Shown piece after piece: positions 7,440 through 55,749 of a DNA stretch of 64,000 nt (the first letter of the stretch is position 1; each line of letters opens with the position of its first letter). The notes under the pieces were generated by a model. It was not told the origin of the DNA. It worked only from the letters and a program-made list of their open reading frames with translations, and did no database searches. The translations under genes and the position numbers were made by a program. The stretch is taken from assembly GCF_964204645.1 (NCBI RefSeq), contig NC_134034.1, positions 9,002,962-9,066,961 on the forward strand, given 5' to 3'. Source of the stretch: Tubulanus polymorphus. Lineage: Eukaryota > Animalia > Nemertea.

Positions 7440-7617
7440 ACGCGTCCCGCGTGAGAAAGAAAAGAAAGTAACATGATATAATGCGATATAACAGGGTATT
7501 TTTTTTTTCAGATGTAAGAACGACCGACGACCGGTTCGAAAGTTAAGCGTAAGACGTTTCAATCTCGCACGCCACGCAGTCGACGGGCGTGTCGTCGAAT
7601 CCATAGATGACCATATG

Positions 7618-8054
7618 AGTAATAGGGGTTTAGTTGTTCTAGATCAAAGGTCGAACGGTCGAGAAATTTTCCAAATGTGAAAATAACAATAATTTCTACT
7701 TGAATTAGTCGCGCACACTCCTAATTCAAGTAGAAATTATTATTATTTCACATTTGGAAAATTTCTCAACCATTCAACCTTTAACCTAGAACAACTAAAC
7801 CCCTATTACTCTTAAAATATTTATATACATGAATAACATTTAAATTGATAGATTATTCAATATAAAAGTATATATTTACAACATTATTTCAATATTCATA
7901 TTTGTGTCAGTTAGATGTTTAAACGTTAAAAGTGTTAGTAAAGTGTGATTGAAATAATGCATAGCTGTTTATACTAGAACCTGATTCTATTTGAGCCTAT
8001 ATATCATTGAACTTCTAAAATCAATTTAAAAAAAAATTTAGTATTAAAATGGAA
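7618..8054. repeat. Left TIR of Polinton A; contains 193-bp hairpin 7618-7810
   Basis: Imperfect inverted match to 23744-24169; ends at ATGGAA of polB. Confidence 0.9.
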
Positions 8055-11000
8055 GCAAATAAGTACTACTATCCAACATGTAATATCAATATAGATAAAT
8101 CCCAAAAAGCAAGACACAATAAAACTAAAACACATTTAGAGAATAAATTGAAACTAGAATATAAAGATGATATATTAGAAACTAAATTAGATGAATTAAA
8201 GAATGAAAAAGAAATATATAAATGTGATACATGAAATCAATCATTCAGTGATAAAAGATATTATAATGAACATTTAAAATCTAAAAGTCATATTAGAAAT
8301 AAGAATAAAGATATTTTAGGTGAAGATTATTTTGATAAAGATAGTGATAAGAAACAGAAGACAATTGAAAGCATAAAAAATAAATTAAACAATAAAAGAC
8401 CATACATGGAAGATGTAAGAAAATATATTAATTCATTAGATAATAAAAAAGATATAGAGATGACCGAAGTATTTAAAAGTGATATTGGTCCAGCAGCTAT
8501 TGAGTTTAAATTTCATAAAGGAAAAACATTAGAAGAAAATAAAAAACATTTAGAAAATATGAAAGATATTATAAAAATAATAACTGATGTTGAATATCCT
8601 AAAATTAGTATATCTTCTAAAGTAAAGTTTATAAAATCTGAAGATAAACCGTTATATAATGTAAATTCTCATTCACAACATATTATTTCAAAACAACATA
8701 TAGATGATAAATTAGATAAATGATATAATGAAGTAAAAACTAAAATAGAAGAGAAATATTTTGAAGGGTCTGGTTTAATATTTGATGAAATAATATTTAT
8801 GACTTTACATGTTTATAACACAAAATATAATAAGTTAACTAAATCAAAACCAATTGATGAAAATATTTTATCATATTATAAAGAACCAGATATTGAAGCA
8901 TCGAGTTATATTAAACTACCATTTAAAACTAATGCTGTAATAAATGTACAAAATGAAGATGATAAATGTTTTCTATGGGCTATAATAAGTTGTTTACATC
9001 CTGCAACTTATAATATTTGTAGATTAACTCATTATAAACCATTTGAAAATAATTATAAGATAGATAAGTATCCTGTTATGATTAAAAACATCCCAAAAAT
9101 AGAAAGAGATAATAATATAAAGATAAATGTATTTGATTTAATCAAATTACCAAATACAAAAGGTAACAATATAAAACATTATACATTAGAACCTTTATAT
9201 CTATCAAAAGATTATGATTGAAACGATGTTATAGATATACTATATTATGAGAATCATTATATGTGGATTTAAAGAATTGATTTCTTTTTTAAATCAGAAA
9301 ATGATTTTGATAATAAAATATATCTATGTAGAAAATGTTTACATAAATTCAGTTATGAAAGTACATTATTAAATCATAAACAATTATGTGAAAATCATGA
9401 TTATTGTAAATTAGTTTTACCAAATGAAAAAGATAAAATATTAGAATTCAAAAAATATGATTACAAAAATAAAGTTCCATTTGTTATATATGGAGATTTT
9501 GAATCATTAAATAAAGAATTAACTGATCAAGATAGAAAAGAAATATATTATAAAAGAAAGAAATTAAATTCTAATGAAAATGATTTTTCAGATGAACCAC
9601 CAAAAACAAATACAATTAAAAAGATTCATCAATCAGCTCCTGCTTTCGGGTTATATATTAAATCTGATTATCCAGAACTAATTAAAAGTAAATATTATCA
9701 TTATAGAAATGAAAATATTATCAATCATTTTTGTGACTAATTAATTGAATATGAAATAAAATTTAATGAAAAGTTAAATGAAAATATAGAAATTATAATG
9801 ACAGAAGAAGATAAAGAAGAATTTGTGCTTTCAGGTAAATGTTATTATTGTGAAAAGATATTTAATTATAAAGATAAAAAAGTAAGAGACCATGATCATT
9901 TGAATGGAAAGTTTAGAGGCGCTGCACATGAGAATTGTAACTTACAAGCTAAGAAAATTAATTTTGTACCAGTTATATTTCATAATCTATCAGGATATGA
10001 TGCACATTTATTTATCAAACAGTTATGTCATAAAATAGAAGAAATCAATAATAAAATAGAAATATTAAATTCAAATAGATCAAAAGATAAAATACCAACT
10101 TATTAATTTAGAATGTTAGCTAAAACATCTGAGAATTATATATCATTCCAATTTGGGTGTTTAAGATTTATAGATTCATATAGATTTTTAAATAGTTCAT
10201 TAGATAACTTATCAAAATCATTAGTTGATGATGAATTGAAAATATTAAAACAACACTATCCAAATAATGATGATTTTCAATTAATGAGATATAAAGGCGC
10301 AATTCCATATTCATTTTATAAATCACATAATGATTTTAACATAACTGAATTATTAAAAGAACAATTCTATGATGAATTAAAAAATGAATATGTTAATTTT
10401 AAAGATGAAGTATAGAATAGAACATTGAATATTTGGAATCATTTCAAAATAGAAAATCATGGACAATTAGTAGATTTATATTTAAAATCAGATGTATTAT
10501 TATTAACTGATATATTTGAAAGGTTTAGAGATGTAAACCTAAAATATTTCAATATTGATCCTTGTCATTGTTATTCATCACCAGGTTTAACATGGGATTG
10601 TGGATTAAAATTTACGGATATAAAAATGGATTTGTTAACAAATATAGATCAATTATCATTATTTGAAAAATCTATAAGAGGAGGAGTTTCAGGTGTATTA
10701 GGTGATAGATATTTCAATGTTAATGATAACCCTGGATATAAGTTATTATATATAGATGCAAATAATCTATATGGTTGGGCAATGATGGAACCACAACCTT
10801 ATGGAGTATTTGAATTAACTGAAGTTTTACAGAATGAAAATAATGATAAATTTGATTGGAAGAAAAGAATCCTAGATATTGCAGATGATTCAGATACTGG
10901 TTACTTCTTTGTTGTAGATTTAGAATATCCTGAACATATTAAATTTAAATCTAGAAATCTAGCATACTGTCCAGAACATAAAACTGTAACTCATGAAGAA

Positions 11001-12085
11001 TTATCAAATTATCAAAAAAGAATTAAACCCGAAAATCATATTCATACAGAAAAGTTAATGGTAACTCAAGAAGATAAATATAATTATGTAGTACATTATA
11101 GAATGTTAAAGTTTTATCTAAAACAAGGAATGATCCTAAAAAAGTACACAGATATATTTCATTCAGTCAATCTAAGTGGTTAGAAAAATATATAGATTTT
11201 AACACCAAACAGAGAACTGAAGCTAAAACTGATTTCGAGAAAGATTTCTTCAAGTTAATGAATAATGCATTCTATGGTAAGACTTGTGAAAATATTAGAA
11301 ATAGAAATGATATTGAGTTAGTAAGTAATGGTAAAAGAATTAGACATTTACAAACATATCCTAAGTTCATTGGTAACAGAATATTTGATGAAAATTTAGC
11401 TGCAGTTAAAATGAGAAGAACATCGATGAAATTTAATAAACCAATCTATGTTGGCGCTTCAGTTTTAGAATTATCAAAATTACTAATGTATGAATTCTAC
11501 TATAATGTATTACAACCACTTTTTGGAGAAAAACATATAGAAATATTATATTTTGATACCGACAGTTACATATTAAAGATAAAAACTAATAACATAACCG
11601 ATGATTTAAAAACATTAAAACATCATTTTGATTTCAGTAATTATCCTAAAAATCATGAATTGTTTAACAATTATAATAAAATGGTGCCCGGTAAATTCAA
11701 AGATGAATTAGGAGGTGAAGAAATGATAGAGTTCATTGGAATTCGATCTAAATTGTATTCATATATAACTAAAACTCATGAATCAAAGAAATTGAAAGGA
11801 ATTACCAAAAGCGTAGTAGAAAAGAATATTCATTTCAAAGATTACATCAATTGTATATTCAATGAAGAAGTTAGAAAACATAAGATGAAATGTTTAAGAT
11901 CTGAAGATCATGAAATGTTTATTGAAGAAATTGAAACGATAAGTCTCCCATTTGATGATAAAAGATATATTCTGGATGATGGAATTCATACAGTTGCTTA
12001 TGGTTGTAATTTAGATGAATACTTAAAATTTAAAAGAGAAGAAACCAAAGAGAACGAGATAATGAAAAGAATTCTAACGTGTTAA
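8049..12085 (+). pseudogene. polB: Protein-primed-type family B DNA polymerase with N-terminal Zn fingers, OTU-like region and EndoVII-like insert (many stops/frameshifts)
   Basis: Fragments carry YGDFES (ExoI), HNLSGYD (ExoII), YLKSD (ExoIII), YIDANNLYG, KLMNNAFYGK, YFDTDS, and RDHDHLNGKFRGAAHENCN; colinear with copy B. Confidence 0.93.
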
Positions 12086-12115
12086 TCAAATTTTTATAAA
12101 AAATATGTTATTAAA

Positions 12116-12469
12116 ATGGAGAGTAAACAAACACACAGTGAGAACAACAAATTATTTCTAGATAGAATTAAAGATATAACAAATGTAAAATCTGTAGATT
12201 ATAAATTCAAAAAGTTAACAGAATTAACAATTCATAAGAAATGTCTAATTACAAATATTGATACAGTTACTAATAACTATGGAGATAAATTAGTTATACA
12301 CTTAGAATATGAAGGATTAAAAGGAAATACATATAAATTCAGAACATATTTACCAGATAGATTTTATAGGTTATCAAGTGAAGATCTAGAAGAATTATGT
12401 TCTGGAGATTCCTATTTCATATATAAGGGTAAGAATGAAAAGGGGCACCATGAAATAGATTTCGAATAA
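12116..12469 (+). CDS. Conserved small Polinton protein, possibly OB-fold ssDNA-binding
   Basis: Intact ORF, close orthologue at 48978-49319; beta-rich pattern, adjacent to polB; function is inference. Confidence 0.6.
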   Translation: MESKQTHSENNKLFLDRIKDITNVKSVDYKFKKLTELTIHKKCLITNIDTVTNNYGDKLVIHLEYEGLKGNTYKFRTYLPDRFYRLSSEDLEELCSGDSYFIYKGKNEKGHHEIDFE

Positions 12470-12486
12470 GAAAATATTTAAAATAA

Positions 12487-13243
12487 ATGGTAGAATTAAA
12501 AGAATATAGAATATTTGTTGATTCAAGAAGACTTACAAATTATAAATCACATAATTTACTAGTACAATTAGATAGAGAATTCAAGAATTGTGTAGATTTA
12601 AAATTAGTAAATGTAAGTTTATGTAATTCTTTTTACAATGTATCGGATAAAACTTTTGAACATAGAGGGTTTATGATTTATATGAGAAATAAAGATAAAT
12701 GAATTCATATATTTTTAAAACCAGGATTATATAATTTAGAATCATTAGCACAGGAAATTAATAGAAGAGCTCGGTTGAAAATCGGGGGTACTGCTGAATT
12801 TGAAATTAGATTTAATAAAATTGATAGTTCCAATAAAATAAGAATAAAGTTATCTAATGAACAACATAAATTTATGGTAAACAAACCACTGGCTAAAATG
12901 TTAGGAATTAAACCTCTTACAGTTACAGGAAACGCAGAAGGCAGCTCAAATATAATACCTTTTACGCACTTTTATATTTATTGCAATTTAATCGAGCCTA
13001 CAAAAACTTTCGAAGCAACTAAAGAAACAATTTGTAGTTCTAGTATACTAAATATTTTACCGCTAAAAAAATGTTAAACAATTTGGAACTCAAATAAATT
13101 ATAATTTAACAGATTGTGATTTCAAACCTTGCATTCCTAAATTCAATAATTTTAAATTAGAAATAAGAAATCCTACTGGTTATTTAATTGATTTGAATAA
13201 CTTTCCTGTAATTTATGAATTGGTTATAAGATGTAAAGAGTAA
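12487..13243 (+). pseudogene. Minor capsid protein (penton, single jelly-roll), disrupted
   Basis: Orthologue of intact 49335-50093; stop at 12700 and frameshift near 13070. Confidence 0.75.
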
Positions 13244-13259
13244 TTTTTTCACTATATAA

Positions 13260-13616
13260 ATGAATATAACTGTTGGGCCGAGTATATGTTTTGGGTTTGA
13301 TTTTAAACATGAGAAAGAAATGAAATTTAACATTACTGATGTAATTTAACAAATCAAAAATATTACATTTTCTAATGAAACAACATTTGAGTATGAAACA
13401 ACAATAGATAAAGAAACTTTTAATGTAGAAAAGATTACTAATTTAATTAGAGAATCTTTAAGATCTTATGAATTAGATGAAGATTTTATCATCGATGATA
13501 TTAAAAAAATAATAATTGAAATATATACAAATGAAACTAGTAATGAAATAAATGTTGAATTAATCATACATAAGATAACTAAATATTTTGATGATAGTAA
13601 TTTTTTTGATAAATAA
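13260..13616 (+). pseudogene. Hypothetical Polinton protein, internal stop
   Basis: Orthologue of 50111-50452 (MNITVGP...NFFDK); TAA near 13347. Confidence 0.65.
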
Positions 13617-13838
13617 ATGAGTGATAATAAGTGGATAATAACTGGATTATATAATGGCGCATTACTATCAGTTGGAACTGTTGGTTATTCAATGGTATTA
13701 AAAAAAGTATTCAAAATGGGAAGTGTTAATGTTGATAGATTTGATATAAATGATATCTTAAAATTAACGTTAGCAGTTACTTTATCTAATTTAACTATTG
13801 ATTATTTGGAAAAACAAAAATATATTCGTCCCATATAA
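13617..13838 (+). CDS. Small hydrophobic Polinton protein
   Basis: 73 aa, one aa difference from 50453-50674. Confidence 0.75.
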   Translation: MSDNKWIITGLYNGALLSVGTVGYSMVLKKVFKMGSVNVDRFDINDILKLTLAVTLSNLTIDYLEKQKYIRPI

Positions 13839-13862
13839 ATGCATAATTTTTTTGCTAAATAA

Positions 13863-14285
13863 ATGGCTTCTGCAATTATAACTATTATAGGATCGGCAAT
13901 TGTTAACGCTTTAGCATTTACTGGTGGCGGTTATTTATTCAAGCATATTGATAAAAATAGTTCATTAGGAGAACAAAGAAGACATAACTTAGCATTAGAA
14001 AAATATAATAAAGCAGCAGAAGAATACAGAGAAAAGAGGCAAAACTATATGGATTACATCAATAAAGAATTATATGATCAGAAGATTTCACTTAGAGATT
14101 TTCACTCAGTCGATGATGCAATGAGTTTATATAACGCGGTAACAAATAAAGAAAAATTACATCTATACAAACCTAAATTATCAGATTATTATACCCCAAG
14201 TAATGAACAACAGAAATATGAAATAATTTGGATTTTAGGTGGAACAGTTATTGTTATATTTGTGGCGTATAAGTTTACTAATTAG
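13863..14285 (+). CDS. Polinton membrane protein (hydrophobic N- and C-termini, central coiled coil)
   Basis: Intact 140 aa, near-identical to 50699-51121. Confidence 0.8.
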   Translation: MASAIITIIGSAIVNALAFTGGGYLFKHIDKNSSLGEQRRHNLALEKYNKAAEEYREKRQNYMDYINKELYDQKISLRDFHSVDDAMSLYNAVTNKEKLHLYKPKLSDYYTPSNEQQKYEIIWILGGTVIVIFVAYKFTN

Positions 14286-14305
14286 TAATTTTTTTTGCTA
14301 AATAA

Positions 14306-14730
14306 ATGGATGATATTATTGATATTATTCCTCATGATATAAATAAAACTAAATTAAAAACATATTTAGAAAAACAAATATTAGAATTTGAAAGTGACTT
14401 AAAAGTTAAAAAGAAAAAATATTTAAAACTAAAATTATATATTATCTTATTATCAGTGGTTCGGTTACAATTAGTTCTGTTATAACATTTCTAGCAATAT
14501 TCAGTCCATTAACACCTTTAGCTATATCAATTGGTGTATTAGGATTAAGTTCAAGTGTTTTAACTGGTATAAGTTCAAAATTAAATATAAAAAGTAATAA
14601 AGAAAAAATTAAAACTAATATAAAAGAAATTAATAAATTGAGGAATACACTAGATTATATCATGAGTTTAAATGGCCATATAACAGTTGAAGAACAAGAT
14701 AAATTAATAAAAGAATTAATTAATTATTTA
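14306..14730 (+). pseudogene. Two-TM Polinton protein, frameshifted
   Basis: Orthologue of 51141-51575; frameshift near 14430, stop codon lost. Confidence 0.7.
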
Positions 14731-14740
14731 TTTTTTTATT

Positions 14741-16121
14741 ATAGTTTTCCAAAAGCTTTCCAATATAATAAATCAATTAAATATAATATTCCTGCAATAG
14801 ATTTTAATAAAGATATTTCATATAGAAATGTAATTTTTAATTCATTAATTAATTTAGATATTTATGTTACTGAAACTAATAATTTTAATGCAAAGATAGA
14901 AAATATATTTCATGTATATTTAATTAATTTTAAAAAATTGAAAGATGAAAAACAGTGGTTATTAAAATCTAATATGAAGTATTGGCAGAACCAATTAAAT
15001 TTTGCTGTTTATTGTGCAACAACAGGATGTGGAATTAGTTGGAATGATCATTTGAATAATTCTAAATATAAATTAATTCAAAGTTTATTTAGATTTCATA
15101 CATACTTTCAAATCAGAATAATATTAAATGAATTAGAGTGCGCTTTACCAGGATCTAGATATTTTAAAGAATTAGATAATAATATTAATTTATCAAAGTT
15201 TTATAAAATTTGTAATGAATTTAATATAGATATAAATAATTCTGATTTTAGAACAAAAATTGGAACAATAAGATCACTTCCTTGCCCTAAAAAGATTGCA
15301 GAATATTGTGCACTTCCCATACCATCTAATAGTTTGTATAATATCTATAGTAATAAATTAGGTTATGGTAAAATAGAAACAAAGGATTTAGAAACATTAA
15401 ATTTCAATAAATTACCGACATTTTATGATAATTTAAAACAAGAAAACAATAATGGTTGGGTTTATTTCATTTTAGAAAATAGTGAAGGTTTTACTAAATC
15501 AGGTATAGAAAGAATAAATCAATCTATTAGAACTTATTTGATATGTATTTTAGGTGCGCAAGTTGAAACAAGATCCCCAATAATTGGAAATTTGAATACA
15601 TCATTTGATGCACAGAAACAATTTAAAGTTTTATTTGAAGATTCAATTCATAATGATAAAAATAGATCGATTCCAGAAAACATTGTAAGATATCAAAATT
15701 ATTTAGATAAATCACATATTAGATTAAATTATTGTATAGGCCCTAATCTTTTATTATTTCTAATGATTTAGTATTAAAGATGGGAAACATAATTGGTTAC
15801 AATAATCTAATTAAAACTGCAACAATAAATAATTCATTTGGATTAAATGATATAAATAAAAAGATAATTACTGCTCCAAAATTAATGGAAGGTGAAAAAA
15901 ATAAAAAACACATTCAATCAACAGAAACTAAAACTAAGAATATTAAATTAAATAATGATTCTAAAATAAAAGATTACAATACATCAGAAGATATAAAAAC
16001 TGATAATATTCAACATGAAATAATTAAACTAAATGATGATAATAAATCCCATGAAAATACTAAATTAGCTATAACTTGTATAGGAATTGTAATCGGGGGA
16101 ATATTATATTTTAAATTTTAA
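14741..16121 (+). pseudogene. Conserved Polinton protein (WQNQLNFAVYCATTGCG motif) with C-terminal TM; start deleted, frameshift ~15750
   Basis: Orthologue of 51592-52982. Confidence 0.7.
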
Positions 16122-16137
16122 TTTTTTTATTATGTAA

Positions 16138-17592
16138 ATGGATGTAGAAGGTGGAGAAGATTATGAAATGGACGGCATGGGAAATAATAATGAAGGATAT
16201 ATTGATGATGATTATAATGATGCAGAAACTAATATTGATGATGGAAATGAATCAGCATATAATTCTAATTTAGCAGATAGTGGTTCTAAAGGCCAATCAA
16301 CAGATGAATATATTAGAGGAGCTGAATCGAGAATAGATCCTGAAAATGAAGATCCAGAATTATTAAAGAAAAATTTAGAATATAATGAATATATTTATAA
16401 TTTCAAACCTATATTTGAAAAATCTGGATATAATATAAATGATAGAGGCGCTAGACTTTTAGTACAAGGCTTAAAGTTTTTAGATGGTGAATATTATTAT
16501 CGTTTGAAAGATGATTATTATATTGATATCTCTTATAAAAAACAAAACAAAATATTAGCAGAATCAACTTTGCTTAATTCAAAACCAGATAGAATTAAGA
16601 GAATAAGAAAGAGTAATGAAATAGAAGATGTAACACAAGAAGAAATTATTAAAAATGAAAGAGTATTTAAACAAAGAATTAATGAATTATTTGAAACAAT
16701 CGATAATAATTTAGAACCAGAAACAAGTTCTGAACAGAATAAAACTTCCAAAACTAGTAAACTTAAATCAAATAAAGTTCCAATTGAAAAACTTTTACCG
16801 AAAGGATTACTTGATGCAAAAGATCAAGAATTAGAAGAATTAGATATATTTACTGATAAGGCAATTAGAGAAATTATTAGTATAAGACTTGCATCTGATA
16901 AAATTATGCATGATAAAAGTATAAGAGATTTTAAAATTAGACCTTTAGAAAAAGAATTAACTGATAAAAATAAAGAAATAGAACAACTAAAGTCTGATCT
17001 TGATCGAAAAGCAATTGATGAAAATGAATTTAGAAAAAGAAATGCATATTTAGAAAAAGAAAAAGATAATTTAGAATATAACATAGAATTACAAAAAGAA
17101 GAAATTAAATTATTATTAAAATCATATGATTATAATATTGATAGATTAAAAGATGTTTTTAAAAGATATCTAATAAATCCAAATTCTAAAATATCATTGA
17201 AAGATAGAATAAAATTATCATTGAAGTTTGAAGGAATAACAATTCTTTCAATTCTAACAGCTGTAACTATGTTATTTACAACAATAGGTTTAGCAATATC
17301 AAATGCTTTGAAATCTACACCTACTCCCAATAAACCGGATAAACCCCCGAATGATAATAATTCTATACAAGATAAAGTTAAAGATGGTTTAAAGAAATTA
17401 GCAAAATATTTATGGGAACTATCTAAAAAATCTGCTGCAGCATTACCAGGAATTATTGCATCAATTGTTGGTTTTATATTGAAATCTGCAGGGAATATTA
17501 TTAACTTTGCTGCTGAACATATTATTTTATTTTTAATTACAGTTGTAAGTGCAATTATTTTTGGGTTAGTAAACATGATAAAAAATAAATAA
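16138..17592 (+). CDS. Polinton coiled-coil protein with acidic N-terminus and hydrophobic C-terminal segments
   Basis: Intact 484-aa ORF; orthologue 52999-54448. Confidence 0.8.
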   Translation: MDVEGGEDYEMDGMGNNNEGYIDDDYNDAETNIDDGNESAYNSNLADSGSKGQSTDEYIRGAESRIDPENEDPELLKKNLEYNEYIYNFKPIFEKSGYNINDRGARLLVQGLKFLDGEYYYRLKDDYYIDISYKKQNKILAESTLLNSKPDRIKRIRKSNEIEDVTQEEIIKNERVFKQRINELFETIDNNLEPETSSEQNKTSKTSKLKSNKVPIEKLLPKGLLDAKDQELEELDIFTDKAIREIISIRLASDKIMHDKSIRDFKIRPLEKELTDKNKEIEQLKSDLDRKAIDENEFRKRNAYLEKEKDNLEYNIELQKEEIKLLLKSYDYNIDRLKDVFKRYLINPNSKISLKDRIKLSLKFEGITILSILTAVTMLFTTIGLAISNALKSTPTPNKPDKPPNDNNSIQDKVKDGLKKLAKYLWELSKKSAAALPGIIASIVGFILKSAGNIINFAAEHIILFLITVVSAIIFGLVNMIKNK

Positions 17593-17612
17593 TTAATTTC
17601 TTTGTTAAATAA

Positions 17613-18861
17613 ATGAGTGGGAGTTATATCAATCCTTCTAAGAATCATAGAATATCTAATGCTATTAAAGCAGAAAGATCACATCACATTATTACTCATA
17701 ACCCTTCGAATATTAATCCCGATGAAACTTTATATGTTAGAATCCCTCGATTAACACAAAATACTTTTTACGTTCCAAATAGTATTTATTTATCAGCCGA
17801 TATAAAAGTAACCGGTAATAATAATAATTATGTTGTTGATAATGTTGGAAGATATTTGATTAGAAAATTAACAATAAAGATCGGCCCAGAAACAGTTTTC
17901 TCATTAGATGATTATAATCTATTTATGCATTATAAAGATTTATGGTTAACTAAAGAAAATAGAAATAACATGATATTTCAAGGAATCCAATCAGAAAACC
18001 AAAATAAATTAAGATCAGAAACACATAATGCAATATTAACTAATGCTATAGATAAATTGATAAAAAGGATATATGGAAGCAAATATAAAATTCCATTAGA
18101 CTTTGAATTGATAAATAATAATGCACCTTTATATAAATACACAATTCAAGAAGATGTTATATTCGAAATAACATTTTCTCCTGTTAATGAAATTGCAATA
18201 TATCTAGCGTTAATAAAGATATGAGTTATAAATTATCGGATATATGTTTAGAAAATGATACAGTAACTGATGAAAATATTTCAAGTATAATTCAAACTCA
18301 ATACAATCAAGGATTTTCATTATTATATGATTATATTGATAAATTTAAAACCGTAACTATTAATGCAAATGATGAAATAATTAATGAGAATATTAACTTT
18401 CCAAGAAGATCTATTAAAGGTATATTAATATTTTTTACCATTGCAACATATACTTAGGCGCAATAAATGTTGATAATTATTATAATCCTGAAATAACAAA
18501 AGTAGAAATAACTATCGAAGGAATAGCAAATAAAATATTTTGTCAAGGAATGAGAATGATTGATCAATGGCCAGAAATTAGAAAACATTTTATGAATGAA
18601 AAAGTAAAATCATCTGAAAATTGTAACATTAATCAAATGGATTATTATACCGGCAATAAATATGCATTGTGGTTAGATTTTAGAACAACAGAGGATAATT
18701 CATTACATGGTTCTGGAAAAAAATTACAGAACACTAAAGATGGAATACAATTATTCATGACAAAGAATAAAGGAATCAAAAATTTTAAAATGCACATTTA
18801 TATTATATCTGACGCGCAATTAAATATTGTAAATTCTCAATTAAATAGTGTTATGTATTAA
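17613..18861 (+). pseudogene. Major capsid protein (double jelly-roll), disrupted
   Basis: Three fragments colinear with intact 415-aa ORF 54470-55717; frameshift ~18195, stop 18455. Confidence 0.75.
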
Positions 18862-18893
18862 AATTTTAACTTTAATAAAAATTTATATAAAAA

Positions 18894-19759
18894 ATGGAAG
18901 GAGGTAAAGTATATAAACATATTCCATACATCGATACACATGAAAATAATGATGGTTTATATTATGTAATACCTTGTAATATAGCTTTGATATTTGATCC
19001 TATTTTCAAAATTTATAAAACTAAACTAATAGAAATCGAAAATAATAAAAGTTGTGTTGTTGATAATTTAAGTAATGTAATTGATAATAATGTAATACCT
19101 ACTACATCTAATAATGTAATACCTACTACATCTAATAATGTTATACCTTCTACATCTAATAATGTAATACCTACTACATCTAATAATGTAATACCTACTA
19201 CATCTAATAATGTAATACCTTCTACATATAATAATGCAATAATATTAAATGTTAGTAAAAATAGAAATTATTGTGATTATTTTAAAGGTGAATTTTCAAA
19301 CGCTCCATCAAATTGGAATAAACATATGAATACAAATTCACATATTACTAACGTGTTGGTTTAAAAGAATTTATAGAACACCCATTTAGATATGTTACAA
19401 AGTTTGTTTCAAATAAAAAAGTAAATGGTAAAGAATTATACGAAGATTTATTATCAGAAACACCTAATAAAAATGAATTAGATTTAACCGATGCTAATGA
19501 AATATTAGGATCAAACACTGTAAATGAAATATTAGGAGCAAACACTAATAAAGATGATAATGAAAATACAGGAAAGCGCATTGATAATAAAGATTCTATG
19601 AAACTTAAATCAGAAAATAAAGATATAGTTGAGATGCCTAATAAGTATATCAATAAACCAATTATTTATGAAGATACGGTAGAGCATTTGAATAAATTGT
19701 TAGGGTCTGATAGTGAAAGTGATTCAGAAAGTAATTATATAACACTCAAAAAAGGTTGA
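18894..19759 (+). pseudogene. Variable-slot protein with (NNVIPTTS)x6 repeat and degenerate Zn finger; frameshift ~19360
   Basis: 24-bp tandem repeat ~19085-19235; starts MEGG like 55750; a second open frame continues to 19759. Confidence 0.55.
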
Positions 19760-20142
19760 AAATTGTATAAAATAATAGTAAATAAAAAAGGGGTTTTAAG
19801 TATTTAAGGTATTTAAGGTATCTAATACATATCTTATACATATCTCATACATATTATTTGAAAATACCTTAAATTATATTTCTTTTTTAAATTTATATTG
19901 AAACCTCAGTAATAATAAATAACCTTTATTATTTTCAAACTTATTCATATATTTGTTGAAAAAATAAAAATAAATTGGTTGAAAATTGTATAAATAATAT
20001 TTATTTTAAAAAAGGGGGTTTTAAGTATTTAAGGTATCTAATAGGGTATCAGGTATTAGGGTATCAGGTATTAGGGTATCTGATAGGGTATCTAATACAT
20101 AGGTAACTAATAGGGGTATCTAATACATAGGTATATAAATAG

Positions 20143-20754
20143 TTATTTTATAAATTTATATTCATATGGAAATTGTAATCTCAGTAATAATTTTGAACCT
20201 TTATTATTCTTTAATTTATTCATATATTCATCATGTTATTCAGTTGGTATAATTTGATTTTCTTCCAATGATTGTTGCATAGATTTTCTATCTTTGTTAT
20301 AAAATAAAACCAGAAATCTTATATTCTCCCTAAAGTCTTTAACAATTGAATTATATTTTTGATTTAAGACCCATGTTGTTATCCCAAAATGTCTTCCAGA
20401 GAAAGCTAAATAACATAACTCACTTTCTCTCACTTTTGAATCATGTAAATTAGCGCAATCATCTATAATGAATAATGTATTGGATCCTTTATAAGTATCA
20501 ATTGCTATTTTAATACAATTATCTAAATTTTCTTTTACGGTTTTAGGATTTAATATAATAAACCTTTTCATCTTAACTATATCTCTATTATATGTTTTAT
20601 TCATTTCATAAGTAGGACAGAATAATATTATATTATCAAAATGATTCTTATAAATAGTTTCTAACAAGTCTAATATGAAATGTGTTTTACCACAATTGGT
20701 TACTCCAGTAACTAACATATTATGCGGTTCAAATATAAATAAATCTTTATTCAT
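20143..20754 (-). pseudogene. A32/FtsK-family packaging ATPase, premature stop at 20236
   Basis: Walker A GVTNCGKT, Walker B FIIDD, GRH motif; orthologue 57213-57827. Confidence 0.9.
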
Positions 20755-21865
20755 TTATTCTTTTAATTTTACTAGATAAAATCCATTCATTGAATTTATC
20801 ATCGTACCCTTCATATTTCACCAAAGAATACTTTTTTCCTTTAAGAGTTTTTGTTTTTAATACTTTTTCTATTTTGTATTCTATATCATCTGGGTTTGGT
20901 ACAAGTGATAGTTCTTGTTCATAAAAATAACCTAATATTTCTTCATCTTTTAAATCTTCGAATTTATACACAAATGGTTTAGTTAATATTATCTTTTTAA
21001 TTTTAAATATTTCTTCTGTAAAATTTGGAGTATAACCTTTACAAAAGGTTTTTCTATATTTAGATATTCTTACGTGTTGTCCAATTTTAAATTTAGGTTC
21101 CCCAAAATCATGTGTAACAAACGCTCCATATAAATAATTCCATACTATTTCTGAATTATCTTCTTTTCTAGCTTGTATAGGTTTCATATTTATAGAACTA
21201 TGTTTAGAATTATTATAACCTTTCACCAAATCATCTAACACATCGATATATTTATATGTTTCATTAGCAGTAAAATATTTCCACATTCTAGTTTTCAATG
21301 TTTTATTAAATCTTTCTATAATAGATGCTTTTTTATCTGAATGTGTTGAAAAATAATCTACATCGTTATCAGATAATAGTTTTTTGAAATGTTTGTTATA
21401 AAATTCTTTACCTTCATCAAATTGTATCTTATCTGGAATAGCTTCTTTAAATATTGATTTAAAAGCATTTGTTACTTCGATACCAGTTTTATTTTTGATT
21501 GGAATTGACCATGCGTATCTACTGAATATGTCTATAACATTCAGTATCCAGAAATATCCTTTGTTGTATTCTTCTAAGTTCTTCATGTCAATTAAATCTG
21601 CTTGCCATTGTTGATCGATACATGAAACCATAACTTTTCTTGTTAAATAAGTTTTATCCATTTTCTTGTGGATTTGATATGTTGGTTGATTTTGTAACCA
21701 TGATTTCAATTCACTATATTTTATATCACCATGTGGGTGCCATACGGCACCATAACCATTTTCCTTATCAGATTTAATTTTACCCCATAATTCTGAAACG
21801 TTAGAATATGATACTTCACTTTCTGGGTTATAATATAACTCTCTTAAATATTGTTCTTTTTTCAT
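20747..21865 (-). CDS. int: Polinton retroviral-like (rve) integrase with C-terminal chromodomain
   Basis: WQADL, QFDEGKEF, IERFNKTLK DDE motifs; YKIEKVL...LVKY.GY....NEWI chromodomain. Confidence 0.93.
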   Translation of the reverse strand: MKKEQYLRELYYNPESEVSYSNVSELWGKIKSDKENGYGAVWHPHGDIKYSELKSWLQNQPTYQIHKKMDKTYLTRKVMVSCIDQQWQADLIDMKNLEEYNKGYFWILNVIDIFSRYAWSIPIKNKTGIEVTNAFKSIFKEAIPDKIQFDEGKEFYNKHFKKLLSDNDVDYFSTHSDKKASIIERFNKTLKTRMWKYFTANETYKYIDVLDDLVKGYNNSKHSSINMKPIQARKEDNSEIVWNYLYGAFVTHDFGEPKFKIGQHVRISKYRKTFCKGYTPNFTEEIFKIKKIILTKPFVYKFEDLKDEEILGYFYEQELSLVPNPDDIEYKIEKVLKTKTLKGKKYSLVKYEGYDDKFNEWILSSKIKRINE

Positions 21866-21871
21866 CTTATT

Positions 21872-22222
21872 TTAATCCATTAATAATAATTTAGATTTAG
21901 TTTCAATGGTTTTATGATTTGACTTATTTTCTGGTATAATAGGTTTATCATCGGAATCATTATTGTTATTAAATTTTGATTTATATATTACACCGGATAA
22001 TATAATAATTGTGATTGTAATATATAAGTAATTATTTCTTCCACTATTAGGAGAATCAGATGGATTATCATTCGAATCAATATCAGATAATTTCTGTGAT
22101 TCATTTATATCAGTTAATTTCTTTTTCTTAGCTTTTTTTAATTCTGAAGATCTTTTACCTAATTCTCTTGCCCATATAATTTGTTTCTCGGATCTAGGCT
22201 TCTTCTTAACGCCATCACTCAT
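21872..22222 (-). CDS. Small basic single-TM Polinton protein
   Basis: Intact; orthologue 58912-59325. Confidence 0.7.
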   Translation of the reverse strand: MSDGVKKKPRSEKQIIWARELGKRSSELKKAKKKKLTDINESQKLSDIDSNDNPSDSPNSGRNNYLYITITIIILSGVIYKSKFNNNNDSDDKPIIPENKSNHKTIETKSKLLLMD

Positions 22223-22829
22223 TTATTTTAGTTAATTTTTGTTCTGATTCATTTTCTGTTTCGACGTTTGGTTGTAGTACAGCGTCATCTGTTTCATTCT
22301 TACCTGATTTATATTCCATAGGTTTGATGTTCGAAAATGATATGACACCAGTAGAAATTAATGTCATAACCGATCCTAATTGAAATGAAGCATAACCAAC
22401 CCATTTTTGTAATTCAGTCATAACTAAGTAGTCATTTTTCAAATCACTATATAATTTATTTTCATCATTAATTGGTATTAACTGGTTACATAACTTAGAG
22501 TAACATTTTATAATACCATCACTTATAGAGTCGTTTATTCTAGCTAATCTAGCTTCTTCATAAATCTTAAAATATTTTATTACTTTATCGGGTTCCATAG
22601 AGTCTAGTTCTTGAAAAGTAATGATTCTATTTAAAAACTCCTTAGTTTTTCCACCGGCAATCAACAGTTCTAGATGATGCTTACAATATGAATAGTATTC
22701 ATAATCTATATTGCAATTAACTTGAATATTATTTTCAATTTTGGTTGGAATATCCTTATTATCACTAATACCCAAATCATTTAATGTTTTTTCAATATCA
22801 ATACTATTCTTATTAGATTTCTTTGACAT
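22215..22829 (-). CDS. Hypothetical Polinton protein
   Basis: Intact 204 aa; orthologue 59318-59920. Confidence 0.75.
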   Translation of the reverse strand: MSKKSNKNSIDIEKTLNDLGISDNKDIPTKIENNIQVNCNIDYEYYSYCKHHLELLIAGGKTKEFLNRIITFQELDSMEPDKVIKYFKIYEEARLARINDSISDGIIKCYSKLCNQLIPINDENKLYSDLKNDYLVMTELQKWVGYASFQLGSVMTLISTGVISFSNIKPMEYKSGKNETDDAVLQPNVETENESEQKLTKINE

Positions 22830-23076
22830 TTATATTAGAGAAAAAAAGCAAAACAAATATTATAAGTATTCTTCAAATGATACTAGTATCTCTTTGGGTT
22901 AATACTAGTTAGTTAAAGGTAAATAATTTTAGTATTAGTTATTGTTTTTTTAGTATTTTTTATTTGTGATATAAAGTATTCTTTTTTGAAAAGAAAATAT
23001 TAAAAATATAATAGAATTCACTAGCTAGTTGAAGTTATTGTTTTTTAAATATTTTTTATTTAAAATCTATTATTCT

Positions 23077-23749
23077 TCAACCACTCAATAAAGATTCAAC
23101 ATATTGTTCATTATTTGGATCATTGTTCCATAATTCAATGAATTTCTTTGCTTTATCTAATTGATCCAAATATAACTGTAAATCTAGTTTATTAGATTTG
23201 ATTTGATTTTCTTTCTTTTTCTAAAGGCCTTAAATTTCTCCAGTTCCATATTAGCTTCTTATTGTATTCATCATTCATGTTAAATTTAGAAATCGGTAAC
23301 ACGTGATCAATATGGTAATAATCCCCATAATTATCTATATTCATTTTATCATCGAATTGATATATTATCCATGATTTGAAAATTTCATCTGAACAACCCA
23401 ACAAATTAGATAGTGTTTCTGAATGCGTTTCTTTGTTGAATAATTGTGTTAATCTAGATCTTAAGCATTGTTTCAATCTAAAATTAAGATCTGTTTGATA
23501 TCTTTCTCTCATATATTCTGTCATATAATCATTATAAGCTTCTCTATTATCTTCTCGATATTGTTTGGTATATAGTTTAAAACAAGTTTTACAACAATAT
23601 TGAAAACCATCTTTGCTAATCTAACGCTTACTAAATTCTGTTAAAGCTAATCTATCTAATTCACACTTAGAACACTTCTTGTAATATATATTTATAACAC
23701 CACCAGTGTTATTTGTAATATTGATAGTTTGTGGTTGTTCTGGTTCCAT
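23077..23749 (-). pseudogene. HNH endonuclease with N-terminal CxxC finger (large-DNA-virus type), disrupted
   Basis: MNIDNYG...HIDHVLP...NLRPL; orthologue of intact 60802-61467; stop ~23621, frameshift ~23200. Confidence 0.8.
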
Positions 23750-24169
23750 TTTAATACTAATTTTTTTTTTAAATTGATTTTAGAAGTTCAATGATTTAAA
23801 TATGTATTATTTCAATCACACTTTACTAACACTTTTAATGTTTAAAAATCTAACTCATACAAATATGAATATTGAAATAATGTTTAAAATATATCTATAT
23901 ATCTATTCTATAAGAGCTCACACTTTTATATTGAATAATCTATCAATTTAAATGTTATTCATTTACATGAATATTTTAAGAGTAATAGGGGTAATAGGCT
24001 TTCAGGTTAAAGGTTGAAGGGGCGAGTGAGTAAAAAATGAAAATAATAATAATTTACAGTTGAATTAGGAGTGTGCGCGACTAATTCAACTGTAAATTAT
24101 TATTATTTTCATTTTTTTACGAGCTCGACCCTTCGACCTTTGATCTGAAAGCCTATTACCCCTATTACT
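23744..24169. repeat. Right TIR of Polinton A; contains 189-bp hairpin 23981-24169
   Basis: Imperfect inverted match to 7618-8054; ends at ATGGAA of the HNH gene. Confidence 0.9.
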
Positions 24170-44523: not shown

Positions 44524-44716
44524 TGTAACCGAATAGGCCGGGCACAGTAACCGACTGGCTCTCCGGGCCAGATTTTCAACACAAGGGCTGCGCCAGACAA
44601 TATACTGCCGCTCAGTACTGACCCACAGCTTGGCCTCCCTTGCGCAAGGCCGGGCCAAATAACCTCGTCGGGGATCCCCTCTACACGTCGTGCCTCCTAT
44701 TGGTTCCAGGTGGGTC
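44524..44716 (-). repeat. 5' LTR, U5 end (left of Polinton B)
   Basis: Matches 5420-5612 with 4 substitutions. Confidence 0.92.
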
Positions 44717-45094
44717 AGTAATAGGGGTAATGGGCTTTCATACCAAAGGTCGAAAGGTCGAGCCCGAGAAATTTTCCAAAATGTTAAAATAACAACAATT
44801 TCTACTTGAATTAGTCGCGTACACTCCTAATTCAAGTAGAAATTATTATTATTTTAACATTTGGAAAATTTATCAACCTCAACCTTTCGACCTTTGATAT
44901 GAAAGCCCATTACCCCTATTACTCTTAAAATATTCATATATATATGAATAACATTTAAATCATTGAACTTCTAAAATCAATTTTAATAAAAAATATAGTA
45001 TTAAAATGGAAGCAAATAAGTACTACTGCCCAACATGTAATATCGATATAGATAAATCCCAAAAAGCAAGACACAATAAAACTAGAACACATTT
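44717..45094. repeat. Left TIR of Polinton B; contains 207-bp hairpin 44717-44923
   Basis: Reverse complement of 62960-63337; extends ~30 codons into polB. Confidence 0.95.
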
Positions 45095-48000
45095 AGAGAA
45101 TAAATTGAAATTAGAATATGAAGATGATATATTAGAAAATAAATTAGAAGAATTAAAGGATGAAAAAGAAACATACAAATGTGATACATGTAATCAATCA
45201 TTCAGTGATAAAAGATATTATAAAGAACATTTAAAATCTATAAGTCATATTAGAAATAAGAATAATGATATTTTAGGTGAAGATTATTTTGATAATGATA
45301 ACGATAAGAAACAGAAGACAATTAAAAGAATAAAAAATAAATTAAACAATAAAAGACCATATATGGAAGATGTAAGAAATTATATTAATTCATTAGATAA
45401 TAAAAAAGATATAGAGATAACCGAAGCATTTAAAAGTGATATTGGTCCAGCAGCTATCGAGTTTAAATTTCATAAAGGTAAAACATTAGAAGAAAATAAA
45501 AAACATTTAGAAAATATGAAAGAAATAATAAAAATAATTACAAACGTAGAATATCCTAAAATAAGTATATCTTCTAAAGTAAAGTTTATAAAATCTGAAG
45601 ATAAACCAATATATAATATAAATTCTCATTCACAACATATTATATCTAAACAACATATAGATGATAAATTAGATAAATGTTATAATGAAATAAAAACTAA
45701 AATAGAAGAGAAATATTTTGAAGGATCTGGTTTAATATTTGATGAGATAATATTTATAACTTTACATGTTTATAACACAAAATATAATAAGTTAACTAAA
45801 TCAAAACCAATTGATGAAAATAATTTATCATATTATAAAGATGATAGTATAAATGGAACAAGTTATATTAAACTACCATTTAAAACTAATGGTGTAATAA
45901 ATATACAAAATGAAGATGATAAATGTTTTCTATGGGCTATAATAAGTTGTTTACATCCAACAGAAGATATTACACATAGTTTTAGATTAACTCATTATAA
46001 ACCATTTGAAAATAATTATAAGATAGATAAGTATCCTGTTAGAACTAAAAACATCCCAAAAATAGAAAGAGATAATAATCTAAAAATAAATGTATTTGAT
46101 TTAATCAAATTACCAAATACAAAAGGAAATAATATTAAACATTATACATTAGAACCTTTATACCTATCAAAAGATTATGATTCAAATGATGTTATAGATA
46201 TACTATATTATGAGAATCATTACATGTGGATTAAACAAATAGATTTATTTTTCAAATCAGAAAATGATCACCATAAAATATATCTATGTAGAAAATGTTT
46301 ACATAGATTCAGTAATGAAAGTACATTATTAAATCATAAACAACTATGTGATAATCATGATTATTGTAAATTAGTTTTACCAAATGAAAAGGATAAAATA
46401 TTAGAATTCAAAAAATATGATTACAAAAATAAAGTACCATTTGTAATATATGGAGATTTTGAATCATTAAATAAAGAATTAACAGATAAAGATAGAAAAG
46501 ATATATATTATAAAAGAAAGAAATTAAATTCTAATGAAAGTGATTATTCAGAAGACGCACCAAAAACAAATACAATTAAAAAGATTCATCAATCAGCTGC
46601 TGCTTTCGGGTTATATATTAAATCTAATTATCCAGAACTAATCGAAAGTGAATATTATAATTATAGAAATGAAAATGTTATCAATCATTTTTGTGACTTA
46701 TTAATTGAATATGAAATAAGATTTAGTAAATTATTGAATACAAATAAAGAAATAATTATGACAGAAGAAGATAAAGAAGAATTTGAGTTTGCAGATAAAT
46801 GTTATTATTGTGAAAAGATATTTAATTATAAAGATAAAAAAGTAAGAGATCATGATCATTTGAATGGAAAGTTTAGAGGCGCTGCACATGAGAATTGTAA
46901 CTTACAAGCTAAGAAAATTAACTTTGTACCAGTTATATTTCATAATCTATCGGGGTATGACGCGCATTTATTCATCAAACAGTTATGTCATAAAATAGAA
47001 GAAATCAATAATGAAATAGAAATATTAAATTCAAATAGATCAAAAGATAAAATACCAACTTATAAATTTAGAATGTTAGCTAAAACATCTGAGAATTATA
47101 TATCATTCCAATTTGGATGCTTAAGATTTATAGATTCATATAGATTTTTAAGTAGTTCATTAGATAACTTATCAAAATCATTAGTTGATGATGAATTAAA
47201 GATATTAAAAGAATATTACCCAAATTATGATGATTTTAAATTAATGAGATATAAAGGAGCGATTCCATATTCTTTCTATAAAAATCATAATGAATATTTG
47301 GAATATTTGGAATCATTTCAAAATAGAAAATCATGGGCAATTAGTAGATTTATATTTAAAATCAGATGTATTATTATTAACCGATATATTCGAAAGGTTT
47401 AGAGATGTAAACCTAAAATATTTTTAACATTGATCCTTGTCATTGTTATTCATCACCAGGATTAACATGGGATTGTGGATTAAAATTTACAGATATAAAA
47501 ATGGATTTGTTAACAAATATAGATCAATTACTATTATTTGAAAAATCTATAAGAGGAGGTGTTTCAGGTGTATTGGGTGATAGATATTTCAATGTAAATG
47601 ATAATCCTGGATATAAATTATTATACATAGATGCAAATAATCTTTATGGTTGGGCAATGATGGAACCACAACCTTATGGGATGTTTGAAATAACTGAAGT
47701 TTTACAAATTGATAAATTTGATTGGAAGAAAAGAATTCTAGATATTGCAGATGATTCAGATACTGGTTACTTCTTTGTTGTAGATTTAGAATACCCTGAA
47801 CATATTAAATTCAAATCTAGAAATCTAGCATATTGTCCCGAACATAAAACTGTTAAACATGAAGAATTATCAAATTATCAAAAAAGAATTAAACCCGATA
47901 ATCATATTCATACTGAAAAGTTAATGGTAACTCAAGAAGATAAATATAATTATGTAGTACATTATAGAATGTTGAAGTTTTATCAAGGAATGATATTAAA

Positions 48001-48949
48001 AAAAGTACATAGATATATTTCATTCAGTCAATCTAAATGGTTAGAAAAATATATAGATTTTAATACTACACAGAGAACTAAATCTAAAACTGATTTTGAA
48101 AAAGATTTCTTCAAACTAATGAATAATGCATTCTATGGTAAGACTTGTGAAAATATTAGAAATAGAAATGATATTGAGTTAGTTAGTAATGGTAAAAGAA
48201 TTGGACATTTACAATCGTATCCGAAATTCATAGGTAATAGAATATTCGATGAAAATTTAGCAGCAGTTAAATTAAAAAGAACTTCTATGAAGTTCAATAA
48301 ACCTATTTATGTTGGAGCATCGGTTTTAGAAATTTCAAAATTACTAATGTATAAATTTTACTATAACATATTACAACCCAATTTTGGAGAAAAACACATA
48401 GAAATTCTATACTTTGATACCGACAGTTACATATTAAAGATAAAAACTGATAACATAACAGATGATTTAAAAACATTAAAACACCATTTTGATTTTAGTA
48501 ATTATCCTAAAAATCATGAATTGTTTAGCAATGATAATAAAAAAGTTCCTGGGAAGTTTAAGGATGAATTAGGTGGTGAAGAAATGATAGAGTTCATTGG
48601 TATTAGATCTAAAATGTATTCATATAAAACCAAAACTCATGAAGCTAAAAAGTTAAAAGGAATTACCAAAAGCGTTGTTGAAAAGAATATTCATTTTAAA
48701 GATTACATCAATTGTATATTCAAAGAAGAAGTTAGAAAACATAAGATGAAATGTTTAAGATCTGAAGATCATGAAATGTATATTGAAGAGATAGAGAAGA
48801 TAAGTCTAAACCCATTTGATGATAAAAGATATATTTTAGATGATGGAATCCACACAGTCGCCTATGGTTGCAATTTAGATGAATATATAAAATTCAAAAG
48901 AGAAGAAACAAAAGAAAATGAGATTATGAAAAGGATTCTATCGTGTTAA
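45006..48949 (+). pseudogene. polB: Family B DNA polymerase (Zn fingers, OTU-like DxxC/HY region, EndoVII-like insert, Exo, Pol); deletion ~47290 and frameshift ~47425
   Basis: 798-aa and 482-aa ORFs; Exo and Pol motifs present; segment present in copy A (~10335-10425) is missing. Confidence 0.95.
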
Positions 48950-48977
48950 TCAATTTCAATAAAAATTTGTATAATAA

Positions 48978-49319
48978 ATGGAGAGTAAACAAGTACACAG
49001 TGAATTCTTAGATAGAATTAAAGATACTTCAAGCGTCAAATCTGTAGATTATAAATTTAAAAAACTAACTGAGTTAACAATTCACAAGAAATATCTAATT
49101 ACTAACATTGAAACAATTACTAATAAATATGGAGATAAATTAGTAATTCATTTAGAATATGAAGGATTAAAAGGAAATACATATAAATTCAGAACTTATT
49201 TACCAGATAGATTTCATAGATTATCAAGTGAAGATCTAGAAGAATTATGTTCTGGAGATTTCTATTTCGTATACAAAGGTAAGAATGAAAAAGGGCACCA
49301 CGATATTGATTTCGAATGA
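48978..49319 (+). CDS. Conserved small Polinton protein, possibly OB-fold ssDNA-binding
   Basis: Intact; orthologue 12116-12469. Confidence 0.6.
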   Translation: MESKQVHSEFLDRIKDTSSVKSVDYKFKKLTELTIHKKYLITNIETITNKYGDKLVIHLEYEGLKGNTYKFRTYLPDRFHRLSSEDLEELCSGDFYFVYKGKNEKGHHDIDFE

Positions 49320-49334
49320 AACTATGTAAAATAA

Positions 49335-50093: not shown

Positions 50094-50110
50094 TTTTTTT
50101 CACTATATAA

Positions 50111-50452
50111 ATGAATATAACTGTTGGACCGTGTATATGTTTTGGGTTTGATTTTAAACATGGTAAAGAAATGAGAATTAAACTAAATGATGTAATTACT
50201 GATATAAAAAGTAAATCATTTAACAATGCATCAATGATTGATAAAGAAAAGTATGATATAGAAAAAGTAATTGATTTAATTAAATCACCTTTAGAATATT
50301 ATGAATTAAATGAAGATGGAATTATTGAAGATATTAAAAACATATTATCCAAAATATATGATAATCATAAAACTAGTAATGAAATAAATGTTGAATTAAT
50401 CATAAATAAGTTAACTAAATATTTTGAAGATAGTAATTTTTTTGATAAATAA
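50111..50452 (+). CDS. Hypothetical Polinton protein
   Basis: Intact ORF with TAAATG start; orthologue in copy A. Confidence 0.7.
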   Translation: MNITVGPCICFGFDFKHGKEMRIKLNDVITDIKSKSFNNASMIDKEKYDIEKVIDLIKSPLEYYELNEDGIIEDIKNILSKIYDNHKTSNEINVELIINKLTKYFEDSNFFDK

Positions 50453-50674: not shown

Positions 50675-50698
50675 ATGCATAATTTTTTTGTTAAATAA

Positions 50699-51121: not shown

Positions 51122-51140
51122 TAATTTTTATTCTAAATAA

Positions 51141-51575: not shown

Positions 51576-51591
51576 TTTTTTAATTATATAA

Positions 51592-52982: not shown

Positions 52983-52998
52983 TTTTTTTATTATGTAA

Positions 52999-54448: not shown

Positions 54449-54469
54449 TTAATTTTTTTTGTTAAATAA

Positions 54470-55717: not shown

Positions 55718-55749
55718 AATTTTAACTTTAATAAAAATGTATATAATAA

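Follow-up and report, generated by a model that had tools for sequence, protein, structure and literature searches.

Terminal fold-back palindromes in an animal Polinton family that conserves a terminal protein, and their possible role as folded replication origins

The window analysed here, a 64-kb stretch of Tubulanus polymorphus DNA, contains two Polinton copies (Table 1). Both are about 24% GC inside and are flanked by DNA of 40-45% GC; they belong to one family, and their shared genes are 88-93% alike. A protein-primed PolB (pPolB), an rve integrase, an A32 ATPase, TIRs of 378 and about 430-440 bp, and 6-bp target duplications were found. Polintons are described with TIRs of 100-1500 bp and target duplications of 5-8 bp (10.1101/2023.08.22.554363). 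By the features tested, both copies are Polintons. Both target duplications directly abut the outer copies of an 11-mer, AGTAATAGGGG, and copy 2 splits a repeat that is intact at 5420-6271; the outer motif copies are therefore the boundaries of the elements.

In copy 2, the right TIR (62960-63337) carries the first ~30 pPolB codons, the same as the left TIR. These identical 378-nt TIRs, which reach the pPolB start, suggest that end-to-end copying still occurs, and the left end of this copy appears to have been copied onto its right end. The right TIR of copy 1 continues into another ORF, unlike that of copy 2. The two TIRs of copy 1 (7618-8057 and 23741-24169) are unlike each other, with the differences compensated inside each hairpin. 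Copy 1 probably arose by recombination between two subfamilies, yet it integrated with a clean duplication.

The Pfam scan covered 27 proteins: 15 of the 16 ATG ORFs of at least 100 aa in copy 2, five from copy 1, and seven from the flanks. PF00665 (rve integrase) was above the cut-off in both copies; a Capsid_N match was weak (E 0.006) and below it. Among the 27 scanned proteins, there was no match to an adenain/Ulp1 maturation protease and no Pfam family of the HUH Rep/NS1 nickase type. Several further repeats were noted. Copy 2 has three ~120-bp units, each with an imperfect palindrome, at 61586-61953, past the last shared ORF and before the right TIR; they are missing from copy 1. Between the convergent gene blocks of copy 2, an inverted repeat with 115-nt arms (88%) and short GGATGA-type units lies at 56799-57214, and the matching place in copy 1 holds other short repeats. 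A further element at 31666-41056 has 508-nt inverted repeats (98%) and nested inverted repeats (35670-35904 and 37807-38033), with no listed ORF of at least 100 aa inside. The flanks (1336-1668, 25163-26053, 28807-29385, and 42132-44287) contain a zf-AD gene piece, integrase, reverse transcriptase, and gag pieces of LTR retrotransposons, and a DUF1280 ORF.

Table 1. Coordinates of the two Polinton copies, their ends, and selected genes in the window
Feature	Position	Strand	Remarks
Polinton copy 1	7618..24169	.	16.55 kb, 24% GC, most ORFs fragmented
Polinton copy 2	44717..63337	.	18.6 kb, 24% GC, within a repeat seen also at 5420-6271
Target-site duplication CATATG, copy 1	7612..7617 (left)	+	right 24170-24175
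Target-site duplication TGGGTC, copy 2	44711..44716 (left)	+	right 63338-63343
Left TIR, copy 1	7618..8057	.	only ~76% like 23741-24169 over 477 columns
Left TIR, copy 2	44717..45094	.	identical (378/378 nt) to 62960-63337; contains first pPolB codons
Left palindrome, copy 1	7618..7810	-	193 nt, loop 7709-7720; - strand (3' end = terminus) folds with 6 G.T wobbles and 1 bulge
Right palindrome, copy 1	23981..24169	+	189 nt, loop 24069-24080; arms unlike left end, self-complementary (91%)
Left palindrome, copy 2	44717..44923	-	207 nt; outer arm 44717-44814, loop 44815-44826, inner arm 44827-44923
Right palindrome, copy 2	63131..63337	+	207 nt, loop 63228-63239
rve integrase with chromodomain, copy 1	20747..21865	-	Pfam
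pPolB N-terminal ORF	45006..47402	+	zinc fingers, TP fold aa 136-256 (Ser241-Gly242), vOTU (Cys307, His405), exonuclease motifs, HNH/endonuclease VII insert aa 586-634; gene broken
pPolB C-terminal ORF	47501..48949	+	palm motifs by eye; no Pfam, NCBIfam, or PDB-sequence match
ORF	54470..55717	+	Pfam scan
A32-type packaging ATPase	57213..57827	-	PF04665, E 3e-13
rve integrase with chromodomain, copy 2	57820..58908	-	Pfam, E 9e-9

The pPolB gene, which is broken in both copies, begins within the left TIR. For the N-terminal 765 residues of the protein, an alignment with 31 of the 120 listed natural homologues (32 rows in total) and a structural model (mean pLDDT 78) were obtained. By fold, the model matches PolBs of adintoviruses and of MELD viruses (best E 3e-23); sequence searches of NCBIfam and the PDB left the polymerase unnamed. 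In the model, residues 136-256 form five strands and two helices. Ser241-Gly242 occupies the loop that links the second helix to the final strand, which is where the linking residues of terminal proteins (TPs) have been placed (10.1101/2024.03.18.585575). TPs are described as derived from the little-finger domain fold in the same source, and the best PDB fold matches here, which are weak (E 0.006-0.01, reported without the matched range), were Y-family polymerases, one of them an isolated little-finger domain. Ser241 is kept in 31 of the 32 aligned rows, Gly242 in 25, and the vOTU residues Cys307 and His405 in all 32. A regular-expression count of the TP motif over the 120 homologues (21/102) used too strict a pattern, and the alignment was used instead. 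The HNH residues D615, H616, H618, H628, and C631 are present in 32/32 rows, and PF02945 was matched in 30/32. The HNH domain lies inside the exonuclease region together with zinc cysteines and catalytic residues, an arrangement of the pPolB2 class as assigned from the domain and the residues. Conservation of the TP fold, its Ser-Gly loop, and the two catalytic residues of the vOTU makes it very probable that the family still uses protein priming, as judged from the sequence; conservation of the TP may instead serve another step. Protein priming, which the initial annotation had left open, has become the stronger side.

The 11-mer AGTAATAGGGG begins at 7618, 23981, 44717, and 63131, and its reverse complement finishes at 7810, 24169, 44923, and 63337. 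These four plus four matches are the only ones in the window, and all eight are palindrome ends. The four ends are imperfect palindromes of 189-207 nt with arms of 88-98 nt and a 12-nt loop, TCGCG(C/T)ACACTC, closed by GAATTAG/CTAATTC. Because the TIRs of copy 2 are identical, three distinct ends are available, and the right end of copy 2 was left out of all counts. The arms within one end are 91-92% alike, and the outer arms of distinct ends are 69-80% alike; the loop motif and the closing 7 bp are identical in 4/4 ends except for one base. The bulge is on the same arm in all three distinct ends, and the outermost 25-26 bp of the hairpin are perfectly paired. DNA folding gave -71.9 kcal/mol for 7618-7810 (z -21.5) and -89.7 kcal/mol for 63131-63337 (z -23.1), and 0/200 shuffles were as good in either case. 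For the strand whose 3' end is the terminus, the folded 3' end forms a perfect primer-template junction, as the initial annotation had stated.

An assembly artefact was ruled out, as independent Illumina reads cover 29 of the 29 bins of the hairpin stretch and target duplications are present. The terminal palindromes are confirmed as real and conserved in the family. The initial annotation had described every Polinton terminus as a fold-back hairpin; this stands for all four ends, given the eight motif matches and both z-scores, and is shown for this family only, a distant relative (L070, below) being without a fold-back. Local folding was also set against pairing of the two ends. For the terminal segments of copy 1, two self-folds gave -152 to -154 kcal/mol versus -124 to -127 kcal/mol for the end-to-end duplex. 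For copy 2, the panhandle is more stable (-253 kcal/mol versus -170 kcal/mol for two hairpins).

Pairing across many insertions was assessed with raw Illumina reads of the same species (run X6). About 12% of the run was read, and 6807 reads were aligned to the hairpin stretch. Of these, 1522 cease matching at 44717 with dissimilar flanks (agreement 0.35), which indicates many insertions. Forty of the 74 variants were listed; three in the loop or beyond the hairpin were dropped, and the remaining 37 arm variants were analysed. Across the ends, 18 of 98 columns have two or more differing Watson-Crick pair types. Among the 17 listed outer-arm variants, 10 have a mirror variant that restores the pairing, a change from one Watson-Crick pair to another, against a null mean of 1.1, and none of 20000 shuffles reached 10. 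Deletions are mirrored as well: 6-nt deletions occur at 44772 (185/792 reads) and 44863 (140/743), and 2-nt deletions at 44784 (198/868) and 44856 (195/840). Five of the 37 listed arm variants are without a listed partner, and one more fails to pair with its partner. The read variants are unphased, and the frequencies of paired variants are as much as 14 points apart (44727 G>A 23% versus 44913 C>T 37%), in the direction of A.C if real. Given the compensatory arm changes and the symmetric indels in many insertions, the palindrome is supported as a structure that is maintained in the single strand. The mirrored indels and block changes suggest that one arm is copied from its partner while the strand is folded.

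The reads also contain family members with shorter hairpins, including a symmetric joint from 44763 to 44878 (29 reads) and a joint from 44761 to 44882 (6 reads) that encloses a small stem and the loop motif. Other members have different mid-arm sequences, and the depth dips are symmetric in both arms. Four opposite-strand joints inside the hairpin, with 4-5 reads each, are too few to be separated from library fold-backs. Run X5, from another organism, gave only two matches of 36-37 nt and no evidence for the hairpin family.

The mismatches left in the arms are strand-biased. The three distinct ends have 21 substitution mismatches, of which 16 are G.T on the 3'-terminal strand, none is A.C, and five are of transversion types. 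Counted by homologous column, there are 11 G.T versus 0 A.C (two-sided p ~0.001 under a symmetric null; the ends are related, and independence is therefore overstated). At each end, the fold of the 3'-terminal strand is more stable than that of the complementary strand by 8-11 kcal/mol. Among the listed read variants, both one-sided transitions from paired reference sites create G.T (44889, 1424/1802 reads; 44896, 762/1998 reads). Mutation of the chromosomal duplex, CpG decay included, would be symmetric, and the bias therefore means that the 3'-terminal strand alone is under selection or has long been exposed. Symmetric CpG decay was rejected as the cause of the mismatches, as it predicts G.T equal to A.C and, on inspection by eye, just 4 of the 11 sites are CpG. 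The strand that ends 3' at the terminus thus likely folds back on itself when single-stranded. The G.T bias also fits an RNA stem.

All four ends are in one orientation, and 0/4 are flipped. In the reads, no mirror variant at 44751 or 44744 was present among the 40 of 74 variants listed, where 44889 G>A alone reaches 1424 of 1802 reads. No loose end behind 44923 was present among the six listed (the weakest with 438 reads; 121 more are unlisted), and no opposite-strand joint between 44717 and 44924 was found among the 15 of 23 joints listed. The inner motif did not serve as an integration end in any listed read class. The initial annotation had proposed a search for flip/flop loops and for copies integrated at the inner motif; neither was encountered in the four ends or among the listed reads. 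For integrated copies, the reads exclude an equal mixture of flip and flop; a flipped minority of up to ~20% is still compatible with them.

Relatives were sought in several collections. IMG/VR gave no match for the integrase or for the paired terminal motif, and the phage collection gave no match. A total of 93 loci were retrieved: none of the 67 metagenome loci found by the integrase reaches a terminus, and none of the 26 found by polymerase alignment has a terminus proven by a target duplication. The distant relative L070 has an AGT-type end, a likely terminus, without a fold-back (-13.1 versus -15.1 +/- 3.2 in 40 shuffles); L073 has an AGT-type start with some structure (-35.0 versus -20.6 +/- 3.2) and no long palindrome. 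Given the lack of a fold-back in L070 and the weak structure in L073, the terminal fold-back is probably not universal among Polintons. At L081:4657-4840, a 184-nt palindrome with AGT-repeat ends precedes the start of a distant pPolB by ~140 nt and, judged by eye, seems to separate divergent ORFs; it is possibly an end-to-end junction.

Terminal palindromes are known from other elements. Endogenous virophages (subtypes 1, 2, 5, and 6) and PLV subtype 4 of Halocafeteria seosinensis have terminal palindromes for which hairpin priming has been proposed (10.64898/2026.07.28.741278). As here, the palindrome lies inside the TIR, adjoins the target duplication, and belongs to an element with an rve integrase. 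The figured palindrome is 52 nt, compared with 189-207 nt in this Polinton, and in Halocafeteria the palindromes occur mainly with non-pPolB replication genes, whereas here they accompany a pPolB with TP and vOTU in an animal host. Neither terminal palindromes nor the idea of hairpin priming is therefore new, both having been reported for protist virophages and PLVs. What is added here is the bias towards one strand, the single orientation, and the conserved TP; the first two are not described in the palindrome section of that preprint. The pPolB2/HNH Polintons (10.1101/2023.08.22.554363) and the TP-vOTU-Exo-Palm layout (10.1101/2024.03.18.585575) share the gene set, TIR, 6-bp duplication, and order of polymerase domains with the present family. 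"Hairpin" has no match in the main text of either source, and "palindrome" has none in that of the first. Bidnavirus repeats form no hairpins (PMC4061559), some casposon TIRs hold internal palindromes (PMC4046053), and the consulted part of PMC11296320 mentions only poxvirus hairpins. One candidate source for terminal hairpins, 10.1101/2022.05.25.493380, was set aside because the hairpins in its consulted part are protein beta-hairpins. The literature search, which covered sources other than Repbase, subscription papers, and preprint supplements, returned no account of long terminal hairpins in an animal Polinton.

Systems primed by a TP provide the closest comparisons. In adenovirus and PRD1, the 3' end of the displaced strand must likewise become duplex for TP priming; the panhandle origin joins two distant ends, whereas here each 3' end can pair locally (PMC11886824). 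Direct evidence for a panhandle on the displaced strand is described as lacking in that source. In Streptomyces telomeres, too, a TP primes on a 3' strand that is folded, and shortened ends are mended by extending the fold-back, so the two can coexist (PMC5449611). They have several short palindromes, an internal origin, and the Tap primase, in place of one long hairpin and pPolB, and serve as an analogy only.

From these observations, we tentatively favour, at somewhat less than an even chance, a model in which the folded 3'-terminal strand is a built-in local duplex origin for TP priming and end repair, in place of a long-range panhandle. In such a cycle, TP-primed strand displacement would free a single strand, whose 3' end would snap into the ~200-nt hairpin and be protected. 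Within the hairpin, the terminal TACT-3' would be double-stranded with no need to pair with the opposite end, 16-18 kb distant. TP-pPolB would then prime opposite the terminal base, open the hairpin, and copy through it, restoring the palindrome with its orientation unchanged. From time to time, the folded end would be trimmed and refilled, so that one arm is copied from the other, leaving the outer 25-26 bp perfect and the indels mirrored. Elongation from the folded 3'-OH would need to be prevented or reversed, and the HNH domain is a candidate cutter of snap-back products. This folded-origin model would explain why the mismatches favour one strand, why the orientation is fixed, why the TP has been kept, and how copy 1 inserted cleanly with two unlike TIRs. 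Against it, a processive PolB would be expected to extend a perfect primer-template junction, unlike a blunt panhandle, and in copy 2 the panhandle is the more stable structure and the identical TIRs suggest that copying from end to end still takes place.

Other readings make the fold itself the primer. The initial annotation had proposed self-primed rolling-hairpin synthesis or resolution of concatemers through cruciforms, with parvoviruses and poxviruses as the comparison. The AAV ITR and the vaccinia telomere are imperfect terminal palindromes of similar size (PMC11575299, PMC8956199), the parvovirus 3' terminal hairpin shares the primer geometry (geometry only), and the endonuclease VII-like domain could conceivably cut cruciforms. 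AAV hairpin transfer and vaccinia concatemer resolution yield both orientations; AAV needs the Rep nickase, and vaccinia ends are covalently closed (PMC11575299, PMC8956199). Flip and flop would thus be predicted here, and no end is flipped, no mirror variant or opposite-strand joint is among those listed, and no HUH Rep matched among the 27 scanned proteins. A one-strand G.T bias could not last if the strands were swapped every round, so replication of this type is very unlikely. Self-priming in a form that keeps the orientation is doubtful, yet it is the form of the proposal that survives, as the 3'-terminal strand is the one that folds. Here, the folded 3' end would prime itself, hairpin-closed or dimer intermediates would be resolved asymmetrically, the HNH domain of pPolB would act as the nickase, and the TP would prime open ends. 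At the left end of autonomous parvoviruses, resolution keeps a single orientation. Junction resolution at the left parvovirus hairpin is mentioned in PMC3431310, and hairpin priming has been proposed for protist virophages and PLVs (10.64898/2026.07.28.741278). The primer-template geometry is exact, and the HNH residues are conserved in 32/32 rows, with PF02945 in 30/32. With the TP and vOTU conserved, however, a second primer is unnecessary. HNH-bearing pPolB2 also occurs in nematode and oomycete Polintons whose main-text description contains neither "hairpin" nor "palindrome" (10.1101/2023.08.22.554363); L070, a distant relative of the HNH type, begins with an AGT-type end lacking a fold-back; and the palindromes of the preprint accompany mainly non-pPolB genes (10.64898/2026.07.28.741278). 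If true, this scheme would be a replication mode between those of adenoviruses and parvoviruses and would give the unexplained pPolB2 nuclease a role. Together, the strand bias, the fixed orientation, and the retained TP make protein priming at a folded origin the likelier reading and self-priming the less likely one.

The fold might also have no part in priming. It could be a recognition structure for integration, excision, or packaging; for example, a folded or closed free end may be opened at its base by the integrase, the 3'-terminal strand joined to the target, and the hairpin copied by host repair. The fold stops exactly at the joined base, the 1522 reads with varied flanks end at 44717, the bulge is on the same arm in 3/3 distinct ends, and mismatched vaccinia hairpins function in packaging (PMC8956199). 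Closed ends, however, replicate via dimers in which both strands fold, predicting no one-strand G.T bias, and conservation of the TP points to open, protein-capped ends; we regard this reading as unlikely. That the palindromes are functionless products of fold-back copying at broken or shortened ends, which arise or are refreshed in this way, is improbable. Long palindromes are normally unstable in chromosomes, the G.T bias is strand-specific (11 versus 0), and the loop and closing 7 bp are the same in 4/4 ends bar one base, although the outer arms are only 69-80% alike. Arm-to-arm copying would nevertheless fit the symmetric indels, the block replacements, and the variable hairpin length (the 44763 to 44878 joint, 29 reads), and accidental annealing has been named as an alternative (10.64898/2026.07.28.741278). 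Selection might finally act on RNA, an outward transcript with a 200-nt stem and G.U pairs giving rise to small RNAs or acting as an RNAi decoy. RNA stems typically show G.T/G.U intermediates, but the genes that begin within both TIRs run antisense to the wobble strand and the stem stops precisely at the terminal base of the DNA, which makes an RNA role very improbable.

In the literature covered, Polinton replication is modelled and not demonstrated. The sequence of this family records which strand folds, namely the 3'-terminal one, and what does not occur, namely flip/flop, and thereby narrows the mechanism. The ends offer a short, defined substrate with which protein priming, self-priming, and HNH nicking could be told apart. 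Palindromic ends are extended from protist elements that mostly lack pPolB to an animal Polinton with a terminal protein. As this Polinton keeps its TP, hairpin ends alone need not mean hairpin priming.
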